Below are positions 33,845 to 55,629 of a stretch of 64,000 nt of DNA, in pieces. The position numbers and the translations under genes were made by a program. The notes below the pieces were generated by a model. It was not told the origin of the DNA and ran no database searches. It saw only the letters and a list, made by a program, of their open reading frames with translations. Each line of letters starts with the position of its first letter. Position 1 is the stretch's first letter. The stretch is from a virus (lineage: Duplodnaviria > Caudoviricetes): the IMG/VR virus record IMGVR_UViG_3300020036_009553, positions 1-64,000 of that record; one strand, written 5' to 3'.

Positions 33845-34477
33845 CGTTGATTTCTTCTTCGGGGTAAGATATAATAATCGCATTGATTTGAGGAGTTCAA
33901 CGAAAATGAAACCATACGGACATTGCAGGAGAGACAAACTGGAGTGCAAATTTGGTTGTTGCACTACCAAGAGCGGAAAGAAAATGTGTTGCCGCAAGCT
34001 GGTTGATCGTGCAAACAAAAAGGCAGCGCGTCAATTCGCGAAAAAATTGATCAAACTTGTGTTTGGAGAATAGCATGTATCGGAGAAACAGTCAGCAATT
34101 TGCCATTGGAACTCGGGTGGAGTTTTTTACGAGCCCCCACACCAAGGATTTTTCATGTGGCACAATAGTTGGCCGTGCCGATAACTATATGTTGATTGTA
34201 CAATTGGATACCCCCCTGACAGATGGATCAACGGCCATTGTACTCGACACGAAGATGGTTACGATCATTTAATCAATGAACGAGCCTAAAAAACAAATCA
34301 ATAACCTTGGTGAAGTGAGCATTTACATTCGTGCTAGGAGGGAAGAACTCACCCAGCAATGGGAGAAGACCAAGGAGACCAGCATACTGTCAAGGATGCA
34401 CGAACTGCAGAAACTTTACAATTTGATTAACTCGAAAGATTCATAATTGAATCTTTCACAGAAGTGTATTTTTTAAC

Positions 34478-35094
34478 GGGCGGTTAGCTCAGTTGGTTAG
34501 TAGCAGTGGACTCTCACCGATGCCTTGAATTATCGAGGTGTCTTGTCCCTCATAAAGCATAAATAAGTAAAAGGTGCTTTATGAGGGGACAGAAATGAGT
34601 GTTTTGTATTCAGTAGATATGTTAAGAGATGCTGTAAGTGAGTCTTTGTGTTATAGTGATGTAACCAGAAAATTGGGAGTGTCTTTGTGCACATTCAATT
34701 TTAAACGCATCCAGAAGTTGTGTGATGAATATGGTATATCAGTTGACCATTTTGACGTAAAGAAGGCGTTTCGAAGAAACAAAAAGGAATACGGCAAGAA
34801 TGAGATTTTTGTAGAAAACAGTAGAATATCACGAAGTCGGTTGAGACCAGCGTGTATCAGGCTAGGAATTTACCCTGGAAAATGCGGAGAGTGTGGTATT
34901 GAAGAAGTTTGGAATGGCAAACCTCTAATCATTGAGGTTGACCACATAAACGGAAACAGTACTGATAATCGACTAGAGAATTTACGGTTTTTATGCCCTA
35001 ATTGTCATTCCCAGACTCACACATATCGAAGGCGGATTTCCCGCCGTACTGAATAATCCATTGGTCACTGGTTCGAGTCCAGTACCGCCCACCA
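34478..35094 (+). tRNA. tRNA, most likely Lys(CTT) (Ile2/Met CAT possible), split by a ~539-nt insertion; exons 34478-34514 and 35054-35094
   Basis: GGGCGGT/ACCGCCC-A-CCA acceptor stem, GTGGA/TCCAT anticodon stem, GGTTCGAGTCC T-arm. Confidence 0.8.
34595..35056 (+). CDS. HNH homing endonuclease inside the tRNA insertion
   Basis: CGECG...EVDHINGNSTDNRLENLRFLCPNCHSQT. Confidence 0.9.
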   Translation: MSVLYSVDMLRDAVSESLCYSDVTRKLGVSLCTFNFKRIQKLCDEYGISVDHFDVKKAFRRNKKEYGKNEIFVENSRISRSRLRPACIRLGIYPGKCGECGIEEVWNGKPLIIEVDHINGNSTDNRLENLRFLCPNCHSQTHTYRRRISRRTE

Positions 35095-35298
35095 TATTCA
35101 CACGGAGGTAACGATGAGCAACAAACAAATCAAACAAGATCGAGATCGATATCTACAACTGTTGGCCGAAGTGGCTGAGTTGTTGAACGGCATTCAACCA
35201 CCGTTGACCTCTGCACAAAAACAGGGTGTTCTTGACGGAACTCTCAAGCTGAAAACTGATGCCGATGGTGGGATCACTGTTGAATAGGGCATAATTTA

Positions 35299-36528
35299 AT
35301 GAAAAGTAATCTGTATATTCCCAAAACCATCACGGTTGGGTTTCGAGAACGCAGTGACACGTTCACAGGAAAGCTCGGTTATGTAATTTATACCGACCAC
35401 AAAGGCGTGTTGCGGAAACAGGCATCGTGGAATTCGTGGAGAGATTTGAAGATTGCAACAATTCAACTCGATAATACTCCACAACCTGGATTCTGCCTGA
35501 ACAAAGGCGTCCAACGGGATGGATATTGGGGTAATGGACGCTCTGTCATTCGTGTCTGGGATCCTCGGGATTTTGAGTTTGAGATTTCTGTTGATAACTT
35601 GATCGGCATTTTAATGCATGCCGATGTCTCAAAGCGGGATATCACCGAACCTTGTGTGTTTGCTTGGAATGGGACAGAGTTGATCTTGCTGCCAACAAAT
35701 TCTGTGGAATATCAACAGTCGGTGGAACATACCGCAAAACAATGTGTCACATTTTCCAGTAGGTCTCTGGTGGCTGGATATACCTATTCTGTTCGCGCGG
35801 ATAATCTTTCTGTTGTGTACCTGGGATACCTCCAACGATGGGAGGCTGTCAACCACACATATAGTTACCGGCGTGATACGGATGTCCCGCCGTCGCTGAA
35901 ACAACTCAAAAAACGTAAAGGACACGTGTTCATCGATCCATCCACGAAACGAATTTACGTCAAAGACCCATCAGCGTTTATCTCGGGCGTCGAGGTCGAA
36001 GAATGTCACAACAAGTTTGCAGATTTATTGCAAGCATATTACGGTGACATTAACAGCCAACCGTGGATCGGTTGCAGCATTCTACCCGCTACTGAGGGGT
36101 ATCGTACTAGGCTATGGGGAAGAATTAACAATACAGATTTCGTCGAATTTGCTTTTACTGATGATTTTATCGGGTATGATAATAACCGTAGACCACCTAA
36201 GGTAGAAGTGACGAGGTTTGGTCGGTATGATCCGTCTGTTCCTGGTTTTACATTTTCTAGTACTGACCAACAGCCTAATTATTGGACAGCTCGTGGAAAG
36301 ACTGTCCCAAGGTTAGCTGGGTTGGCTATCGATCAACCGGAAGTAATTGCTTTGGGAGGGCTTATTCTAAGTCATCTGGTTGCAAACCCATCCGATAAAA
36401 CGTCTTTTACGTGGCAACAAAAGAAAATTCACATGAAGAAGATATTCGCTGAGATGTACACAAATTCCAACATTGGAGAGCTTTCTGTCGTATTGTCTGA
36501 TGGGAAAATCGCCAAAACTGAAATATAA
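35299..36528 (+). CDS. hypothetical phage protein (409 aa)
   Basis: Long ORF; DPRDFEFEISVDNL segment. Confidence 0.7.
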   Translation: MKSNLYIPKTITVGFRERSDTFTGKLGYVIYTDHKGVLRKQASWNSWRDLKIATIQLDNTPQPGFCLNKGVQRDGYWGNGRSVIRVWDPRDFEFEISVDNLIGILMHADVSKRDITEPCVFAWNGTELILLPTNSVEYQQSVEHTAKQCVTFSSRSLVAGYTYSVRADNLSVVYLGYLQRWEAVNHTYSYRRDTDVPPSLKQLKKRKGHVFIDPSTKRIYVKDPSAFISGVEVEECHNKFADLLQAYYGDINSQPWIGCSILPATEGYRTRLWGRINNTDFVEFAFTDDFIGYDNNRRPPKVEVTRFGRYDPSVPGFTFSSTDQQPNYWTARGKTVPRLAGLAIDQPEVIALGGLILSHLVANPSDKTSFTWQQKKIHMKKIFAEMYTNSNIGELSVVLSDGKIAKTEI

Positions 36529-37515: not shown

Positions 37516-38154
37516 GCCCGGGTGGTGAAATCGGTAGACACAAGGGACTCAACAGGGTCACTAGCGAAAAATGAATTGGTAGCCAGAAAACGTTGATATA
37601 TTATGATCAGCTAATCCAGGCGTAACAAGTCAAGGGAAACCCGCTAGTAGTATTTCCGTAAATTCGGCGAACGCTAAAACAAGCAGACGGCAAGGCATCT
37701 CGGTAAGAGCAAGGGACGAGGAAATAGTAACACTCGTGGTTAAATCTACTTATTGAGATGGTTAAAACTAGAATGCTTGTTATGCCAACGCCGAGCCGAG
37801 CCTGTACTTTGAACGGTGGACCGTTTAACTAAGTACCGTAGTGAGGATGCAACTGGCTTACTTAAATGTAAACAATGATAGTATCTGTGCCAGTAGAACC
37901 ATAAAGGTAAGTATAGGAAGGTGTAGAGACTAGAGACGGAATGCCTGGGCGGTAGGCTTACGGGATGCTGATATAATCCCGCCGAGTAACCGTATGGTGA
38001 TAGCATAGTCCAGACCACGAACAATCGCTCACGATTAGAAAACGAGTGAGTAATAGCTAAAGCAACGGGTAGCTAGATTGGCGGCGAAAACCGAAGTGGT
38101 AAGTAAAATCCCTCGCCGTAAGGCATGCGGGTTCGATTCCCGCCCCGGGCACCA
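37516..38154 (+). tRNA. tRNA-Leu(TAA) with group I intron; exons 37516-37549 and 38104-38154
   Basis: GCCCGGG/CCCGGGC-A-CCA; AGGGA-CT|TAA-AA-TCCCT; long variable arm. Confidence 0.9.
37550..38103 (+). ncRNA. group I self-splicing intron (554 nt, no evident ORF)
   Basis: Exon ends in U, intron ends in G; P-like AAATTCGGCGAA, Q-like AACGCCGAGCC, R GAAGGTGTAGAGACTA, S CATAGTCC. Confidence 0.85.
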
Positions 38155-54840: not shown

Positions 54841-55224
54841 TTTCTCATTATAAATACAGTATAATATCTCCATCAAATAGAGAAAACAAATGAATTTTGC
54901 TGAATATAATATGTTCATCAAATGGAGAACACAAATGAAGTTTGCTGACTTTGTACAGAGATGTCAACAACTTCTTCGGGAGAATCCCGAAACATCAACG
55001 ATGAAGGTATTCAACACATCGGTTATGGATTCTCCTCAACGGTTTGTGACGTCTGGGGTATATGTTGGATCTGTGACGTGTGAGGATCTAGGTGGTGAGT
55101 GTGAACGGTTTTTGATTACTGGTGATCCTGATGTAGCCCTTCTTGAACCGCTGAATGACGTTCCCGTTCAGTCATTCACAGTGGATTGTGTGGTCATTGA
55201 CGCGTATTGAGTATAAATAGTACA

Positions 55225-55629
55225 ATGAAGATTTGTACAAAATGTAAAGTCCTTAAAGGTTTAGACGAATTTCATCGAAGCTGTAAGGGAAAACTGGGTG
55301 TTCAGCCTGCGTGTAAAGAATGTATGAACGCTGCTTACACCATTTCTCGTAACAAAAAGCGTCAGCACTACCAGGAAGTTGGGTACGCACGTAATAGGCT
55401 CGTAACAACGAAAATTGAAGAATATAAAGCAAGTAAGGGATGTACGATTTGTGGGGAGATGGATCCTTGTTGTATCGATTTTCATCACACAGACCCCTCC
55501 AAGAAAGAAAATGCGATTTCAAATATGAGGCACTGCTCTTGGGATACTGTTCTGGTTGAGGTCGCAAAGTGTATCCCGCTTTGTCGCAATTGTCACGCAA
55601 AAGTTCACGCAGGAAAATTGAAGTTATAA
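55225..55629 (+). CDS. freestanding HNH endonuclease with N-terminal zinc ribbon
   Basis: CTKC, CKEC, CTICG..DFHH...KCIPLCRNCHAKVH; TATAAATA just upstream. Confidence 0.8.
   Translation: MKICTKCKVLKGLDEFHRSCKGKLGVQPACKECMNAAYTISRNKKRQHYQEVGYARNRLVTTKIEEYKASKGCTICGEMDPCCIDFHHTDPSKKENAISNMRHCSWDTVLVEVAKCIPLCRNCHAKVHAGKLKL

Follow-up and report, generated by a model that had tools for sequence, protein, structure and literature searches.

A tRNA gene that is interrupted in its anticodon by the gene of an endonuclease raises the question whether the interruption is an intron, i.e. is taken out of the transcript so that a working tRNA results, or whether it is a mobile gene that has simply broken the tRNA in two. 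The case considered here lies in a metagenomic phage genome of the Caudoviricetes (IMG/VR record IMGVR_UViG_3300020036_009553), of which the first 64,000 nucleotides were analysed in detail (hereafter the window, to which positions refer unless stated otherwise). The phage is present in activated-sludge and wastewater samples. The original prediction left both answers standing. On the basis of the tRNA halves, the insert itself, its lack of known splicing features and the genomic context of the homologues of the encoded enzyme, we argue that the probable answer is the second one.

When introns are allowed, ARAGORN reports a tRNA on the plus strand at 34478-35094 that carries a 539-nt intron; neither ARAGORN without the intron option nor Rfam detects the tRNA. 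The two halves that had been predicted some 539 nt apart are indeed present (34478-34513 and 35053-35094), for when joined in silico they form a canonical cloverleaf with 7 of 7 pairs in the acceptor stem, 5 of 5 in the T arm, a D stem of 3 bp and 5 of 5 pairs in the anticodon stem (including G27.U43), which ARAGORN classifies as tRNA-Met(cat). Four junctions can restore a 7-nt loop, yielding the anticodons AAU, CAU, CUU or CUC, and the original prediction hesitated between Lys(CTT) and CAT. Comparison with uninterrupted tRNAs settles the matter for CAT and makes Lys(CTT) unlikely: the tRNA-Met of Acinetobacter phage AbTZA1 has an identical anticodon arm (GTGGACTCATAATCCAT), the same uninterrupted sequence is present in at least 120 bacterial genomes from many phyla, and among phage sequences the best alignments break off after C34 for the 5' half and set in with A35 for the 3' half, the matched genes being mostly annotated as tRNA-Met. 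Because of this homology we place the insert between C34 and A35, with CAU as the anticodon. The joined halves are collinear with the tRNA(CAU) of phages and bacteria and no base is lost or duplicated, so that the insertion is base-precise. The TAA stop codon of the inserted frame, which had been taken for the start of the 3' exon, does lie within the tRNA (35054-35056, nucleotides 36-38), but the exon begins one base earlier, the last base of the final sense codon being nucleotide 35.

As to identity, the sequence suggests that the split tRNA is either elongator-Met-like or Ile2-like. The G27.U43 pair and the variable loop presumably are Ile2-like features, judged against the E. coli sequences, and such an identity would be in keeping with the other tRNAs that ARAGORN finds in the phage (Leu-UAA, Thr-UGU and Pro-UGG), all of which read A-ending codons. 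The D arm contains one extra T (GGTTAGTAGC versus the bacterial consensus GGTTAGAGC), and all bacterial matches to the uninterrupted anticodon arm are of the 32-nt form that lacks it. This extra T would fit a relaxed constraint on the gene; it is no proof of decay, since D arms ending in GTAGC occur in apparently intact phage tRNAs as well (L013 and L019).

Table 1. Features of the interrupted tRNA gene and its insert (window positions)
Feature	Position	Strand	Description
tRNA(CAU), 5' part	34478..34513	+	nt 1-34: acceptor 5' strand, D arm with extra T, anticodon stem 5' strand, then C32 U33 C34
Insert	34514..35052	+	539 nt between C34 and A35; 81-nt leader plus HNH gene
Leader	34514..34594		non-coding, 81 nt
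Leader hairpin 1	34519..34542	+	10 bp, 4-nt loop; no counterpart in the L003 leader
Leader hairpin 2	34543..34592	+	homologous to the L003 leader (free-standing HNH gene)
CATAAATA	34558..34565		loop of leader hairpin 2
GAGGGG	34583..34588		ribosome-binding site, in the 3' arm of leader hairpin 2
HNH homing-endonuclease gene	34595..35056	+	153 aa
GGCGG-ATTTC-CCGCC hairpin	35031..35045	+	within the Arg-rich tail of the ORF, 7 nt upstream of the 3' junction
tRNA(CAU), 3' part	35053..35094	+	nt 35-76: A35 U36 A37 A38, anticodon stem 3' strand, variable loop, T arm, acceptor 3' strand, A73, encoded CCA

The insert (Table 1) is more AT-rich than its surroundings (39% GC versus 44-46% in the flanks) and consists almost entirely of coding sequence, as had been recognised at the outset. 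The open reading frame of about 460 nt encodes an HNH protein (Pfam PF01844, 6.6e-7; PF13392, 5.5e-6; phrog_10822, 2.4e-42), the 153-aa translation of which contains the two CxxC pairs (CGEC and CPNC) of the HNH/His-Me finger motif and aligns over nearly its full length with homologues of about 150 aa. The non-coding RNA is confined to the leader, with 0 nt following the frame. The leader folds, as foreseen, into two hairpins, which together are very stable (-36.8 kcal/mol, z = -7.2), and the ribosome-binding site is buried in the second of them. This second hairpin and the leader of the HNH homologue at the IMG/VR locus L003 align with each other. A scan for promoters and terminators yielded nothing above chance, and paralogues of the cassette are absent from the genome.

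Some smaller resemblances within the insert deserve mention. The GGCGG/CCGCC hairpin that had been noticed near the 3' end is present, and its arms have the same letters as nucleotides 2-6 and 67-71 in the acceptor stem of the split tRNA, a match that may be a chance product of Arg codons. The insert starts with UCACC, which aligns with a tRNA 3' end (CACCA) in L003; together with hairpin 1 it may represent a scar of the donor context. Two other candidates were rejected: a vestige of the tRNA 5' half in the 3' end of the frame aligned locally no better than shuffled sequences, and the CTCATAA in the leader, considered as a copy of the anticodon loop, forms an arm of the hairpin that is conserved between the window and L003.

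If the insert were an intron, one would expect it to bear the marks of one of the known routes of removal. It shows none of them, which bears out the absence of group I elements, group II ends and a clean bulge-helix-bulge as originally predicted. In group I introns the last base of the exon is a U (paired as G.U in P1) and the last base of the intron is a G, and the core (P3-P9, with the guanosine site in P7 and the R/S elements) needs about 200 nt. Here the exon ends with C34 and the insert with A35052, the sole U...G pair of boundaries would yield the anticodon AAU, an R/S motif pair is absent from the insert, and there is too little room for a core, the frame being no longer than that of homologues that have no ribozyme. 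The Rfam group I model RF00028 has no match in the window or in the 128-kb record. Because this model also misses the intron in the tRNA-Leu gene of the window and nearly all related introns, covariance models were purpose-built from the P7-P3'-P8-P7' modules of two families of HNH-bearing tRNA introns (R1 and R2, run with filters off). The check with intron models that had been proposed thus could be made with suitable ones: R1 recovers the tRNA-Leu intron (37917-37988, 18.3 bits, E 0.003), and R1 and R2 find no group I core across the HNH frame and nothing significant anywhere in 34478-35094 (best 6.7 bits, E 1.8). The tRNA-Leu(UAA) gene itself (37516-38154) is split after U33 by a 554-nt insert without an open reading frame, and has clear group I R/S elements (GTAGAGACTAGAGACGG ... 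GCATAGTCCAGACCAC) that closely resemble those of HNH-bearing tRNA-Leu introns of other phages (e.g. L053); the contrast with this intron that had been drawn at the start therefore holds.

The remaining routes fare no better. Group II introns are marked by 5' GUGYG, 3' AY, a domain V and usually a reverse-transcriptase frame; the ends of the insert (UCACC...CUGA) are wrong for this class, its frame encodes an HNH protein only, and the group II models of Rfam 15 have no match in 34300-35300 at E up to 10. The same holds, in the same region and at the same cutoff, for the small self-cleaving ribozymes (hammerhead, twister, pistol, hatchet and HDV-like). A bulge-helix-bulge consists of two 3-nt bulges separated by a 4-bp helix, placed at the junctions, and is cut by a splicing endonuclease; at all four loop-restoring junctions the pairing is at chance level, and the splicing endonuclease (EndA, PF01974) is absent from the 128-kb record, which is about 57% complete. 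An insert shaped like a tRNA, i.e. with an acceptor stem and T arm at its ends and RNase P and RNase Z cuts at the junctions, is not indicated either: the ends pair over 3 bp only (UCA/UGA), ARAGORN by default finds no tRNA-like fold in the insert and under relaxed settings one spurious internal match only, and the Rfam tRNA model has no match at E up to 10. The search for RNA ligases that had been suggested was half successful. RtcB, the ligase type it had in mind, is absent from the record of about 57% completeness, as is a T4-type Rnl1, and as a consequence of this incompleteness such genes may be missing from the record; a single RNA ligase of 210 aa (PF09414) is present beyond the window, at 73659-74288 of the genome (L090:1408-2037). 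The ligase consists of the PF09414 nucleotidyltransferase domain alone; upstream of it, and separated from it by a 108-aa frame of no known family, is a protein that has a GmrSD domain at its N-terminus.

Clues to the origin of the insert come from the genomic context of the homologues of its enzyme. The two nearest homologues in IMG/VR (L002, 51% and L003, 44% identity) are encoded by free-standing genes, each with its 3' end in the 5' part of a tRNA-Met(CAT) gene, the one in L003 being located between this gene and a tRNA-Leu gene. Hairpins similar to the second leader hairpin, with (C/T)ATAAATA, are found upstream of other homologues. About 22 of the 80 homologues have a tRNA within 20 nt, and at seven of the 80 loci (L002, L034, L040, L052, L056, L059 and L067) the HNH frame stops in the TAG provided by U8-A9-G10 of the next tRNA. 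Borrowing a stop codon from a conserved tRNA triplet hence appears to be a habit of the family, for which the frame in the window uses U36-A37-A38. Free-standing homologues in tRNA arrays also occur in cultured phages (the Vibrio phages D69 and D479).

A further part of the family, at least 16 of the 80 homologues, is housed in group I introns that interrupt the anticodon loop of phage tRNAs (L023, L024, L027, L028, L032, L051, L053, L057, L063, L068, L071, L072, L074, L075, L078 and L080, at about 1350-2480 in each); in these, 77-97 nt precede the frame and a P7-P8 core follows it. By their cores the 16 loci form two families, in which P7 and P8 show compensatory changes, and in the 11 of them that were scanned the Rfam group I model has no match at E up to 0.1. 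The HNH family thus is common both in phage tRNA arrays and in tRNA group I introns that go unseen by Rfam; according to a review from 2014, every phage intron then known sat in a protein gene (PMC3984707). At three loci (L023, L028 and L072) the HNH frame reads through the core elements of the intron. The split tRNAs of family B (L027, L032 and L068, at about 1400-2480) have Gln-like bodies with U1-A72, and by the U...G splice rule their loop becomes CUCUAAA, so that a CUA (amber-reading) anticodon arises only once they are spliced. Two other loci (L034:1389-2057 and L036:1351-1967) have an HNH gene and a complete tRNA nested in a split tRNA without a ribozyme motif, which looks like an endonuclease cassette that brings along a replacement tRNA.

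The above contexts tie the lineage of the enzyme to tRNA genes and its nearest branch to tRNA(CAU). Searches that could have widened the sample added little: when relatives were sought among viral and metagenome sequences with the 409-aa protein encoded downstream, the proteins recovered were only 35-50% identical and had no split tRNA nearby, exact patterns taken from the tRNA halves gave one match only (a prophage attachment site in another tRNA), and a search with the L003 enzyme as query added nothing. Elsewhere in the window, a 140-aa frame (55207-55629) ends one base before a tRNA-Pro gene (55630). Its matches are weak (PF18275, a His-Me finger family, E 0.004, below the cut-off; HNH motif, E 0.12), and it may be a second nuclease gene that abuts a tRNA in the same phage.

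Judging from its sequence, the insert is built like the free-standing members of the family, yet its place is within the target. The reading we favour, and consider probable, is accordingly worded in these terms: an HNH cassette of the free-standing type landed in its own target, splitting the tRNA(CAU) gene and shielding its own copy, and the tRNA probably is dead. An insertion that leaves a split tRNA was among the options of the original prediction, and the homology of the leader and the location of the L002 and L003 genes beside tRNA-Met(CAT) make it the better-supported one; the loss of function is a part that we infer. In terms of mechanism, the enzyme would cut tRNA(CAU) genes near the anticodon, and its gene would have been inserted where the enzyme cuts or close by, so that a gene that in relatives lies immediately upstream of tRNA(CAU) would here have moved inside, as a ribozyme-free insertion precisely between C34 and A35 of the phage gene. 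The split site could no longer be cut and the genome would therefore be immune. In a mixed infection, the element could be copied into the intact tRNA(CAU) genes of co-infecting phages, the tRNA halves serving as homology arms, and because of such homing base-precise junctions would require no splicing at all. The second leader hairpin hides the ribosome-binding site and presents a late-promoter-like box in its loop, by which, in analogy to the endonuclease genes of T4, expression from read-through transcripts probably is held back and expression from the loop box allowed. Since no excision route is visible, the tRNA is most likely inactive, and the phage would rely on the tRNA of its host instead.

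Some observations can be held against this reading of a landed cassette. Both halves are free of other defects and the insert is placed to the exact base, as one would expect for an intron under selection, though the same is equally expected of an insertion that is recent or propagated by homing; and the PF09414 ligase could be used by a protein-dependent splicing route. Along that route, host or phage nucleases would cut the RNA at C34/U+1 and A-1/A35, and the phage ligase or a host RtcB would seal the ends to a working tRNA(CAU), the end-matured precursor retaining the acceptor, T and D arms. That the frame depends for its stop codon on the UAA of the anticodon loop, having none itself, suggests a long residence at the site, and unexplained introns in phage tRNAs are on record (Devoto et al. 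2019, PMC6784885). The cut sites, however, are not marked by structure: a bulge-helix-bulge is lacking, as are tRNA-like ends on which RNase P and RNase Z could act. The leader is of the type found upstream of a free-standing endonuclease gene, and the genes of the 57%-complete record include neither a splicing endonuclease nor RtcB nor a T4-type Rnl1. RNA ligases are common among the tRNA-repair genes of phages, and for that reason the presence of one is weak evidence. Removal by proteins hence seems to us rather unlikely, and so, to the same degree, does its wider implication that the insert exemplifies a ribozyme-free, endonuclease-carrying kind of intron undescribed in bacteria and phages and belonging to a wider protein-spliced class.

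A different starting point would be a true group I intron with an HNH gene that has lost its catalytic core by deletion, leaving a dead tRNA gene. The abundance of homologues in such introns speaks for this, as do the intron in the tRNA-Leu gene of the same window, the length of the leader (similar to the 77-97 nt of the intron-borne homologues) and a U33...G35051 boundary pair with weak P1-like pairing (GGACU with GGU-G-UC). Nevertheless, that boundary pair yields AAU rather than the CAU indicated by homology, in a CUCAUAA loop an insertion at a known group I site would come after U33 or U36 rather than after C34, the leader has its homologue upstream of a free-standing gene and not among the intron leaders, and the deletion would have had to stop exactly at the exon and yet spare a full-length frame; we regard such a remnant as improbable. 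Less credible again is a cryptic or new ribozyme, formed in part by coding sequence or by leader hairpin 1, that splices the tRNA. The precursor as a whole is more stable than shuffled sequences (z = -4.9), hairpin 1 is missing from the free-standing leader, CGACTAGAG within the frame resembles the 5' strand of P7, and frames that run through core elements do exist (the three loci mentioned above). But the partner strand for P7 and a terminal G are absent, CGACTAGAG encodes the conserved R-L-E of the HNH motif, the Rfam families (at E up to 10) as well as R1 and R2 are negative, and the frame is not longer than in ribozyme-free homologues, all of which makes such a ribozyme very improbable. 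It is hardly conceivable, finally, that the split gene is the product of a chimeric contig. The record does stem from metagenome assembly, and in four public runs, the contigs of which are short, none bridges either junction, the candidates being unrelated tRNAs of other organisms. In one run with a relative of roughly 96-97% the flanks are covered and the insert region is without coverage, a gap that we do not count for or against any reading. Against an artefact stand the location of the insert between adjacent tRNA bases without overlap, loss or duplication, the 7 of 7 pairing of the halves, the pieces of the insert and of both flanks that recur at 100% identity in independent runs, and the analogous arrangements in other records (L034 and L036).

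If the tRNA is dead, this locus of about 700 bp would be a clean natural case in which the gene of a homing endonuclease left its place next to the target for one within it, with the anticodon as a landing pad without the usual cover of a ribozyme. It would then bear on the origin of endonuclease-carrying introns, as one in which endonuclease and ribozyme meet separately. If the tRNA is re-joined after all, bacteria or phages would have protein-dependent tRNA splicing, which to our knowledge is so far known from archaea and eukaryotes only. Split tRNAs also explain genes that are missed by tRNA finders in phage genomes.

The components of this arrangement are already known one by one: endonuclease genes that stand free within the tRNA clusters of phages, group I introns of tRNA(CAU) genes that carry an endonuclease, and protein genes split by endonucleases. 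A ribozyme-free endonuclease cassette lodged in the anticodon of a phage tRNA was not encountered in the literature searched. Archaeal tRNA introns and split tRNAs with a bulge-helix-bulge, which are processed by an endonuclease and RtcB, likewise interrupt the anticodon region, but here both the bulge-helix-bulge and (in the record) EndA are lacking, and the tRNA and its context are bacterial. For the Lak megaphages, 'enigmatic' tRNA introns of no recognised class are mentioned (Devoto et al. 2019, PMC6784885). As far as the relevant passages of that report go, the likeness consists of a phage tRNA gene interrupted by sequence of no recognised intron class, and the tRNA nested in a Lak tRNA-Thr resembles the situation in L034 and L036; the Lak introns are not described there as carriers of an endonuclease, and the insert in the present case has no tRNA-like fold.

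In Aeromonas phage Aeh1, nrdA is split by mobE. This gene and the 'fractured genes', i.e. protein genes split by the insertion of a homing endonuclease (PMC2677866), share with our locus an endonuclease gene that lies within a conserved gene without an intron and leaves two collinear pieces. The difference is that their pieces reassemble as proteins or by means of split inteins, whereas we know of no way in which a tRNA that is broken at the anticodon would work in pieces in bacteria. The target itself has a parallel in the group I intron of a bacterial tRNA-fMet that encodes I-Ssp6803I (Bonocora and Shub 2001, as cited in PMC3984707). In both cases an endonuclease gene resides in a CAU anticodon loop and the enzyme presumably is specific for the anticodon region, and the HNH protein in the window is of the same family as those in many phage tRNA group I introns; the insert differs from these introns in having neither a ribozyme core nor the room for one, in not following the U/G rule and in its position after C34. 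In its way of life the element would be like SegB of T4, the free-standing homing endonuclease gene of a phage tRNA cluster (PMC2330249). Like segB, it is a small endonuclease gene among phage tRNA genes, presumed to encode a cutter of the tRNA region of rivals and to be co-inherited, and its leader resembles the control of the T4 type in that the ribosome-binding site is hidden and a late-promoter-like box is present. SegB, however, is a GIY-YIG enzyme encoded between tRNA genes, whereas here an HNH gene sits inside the anticodon of a tRNA and splits the gene.
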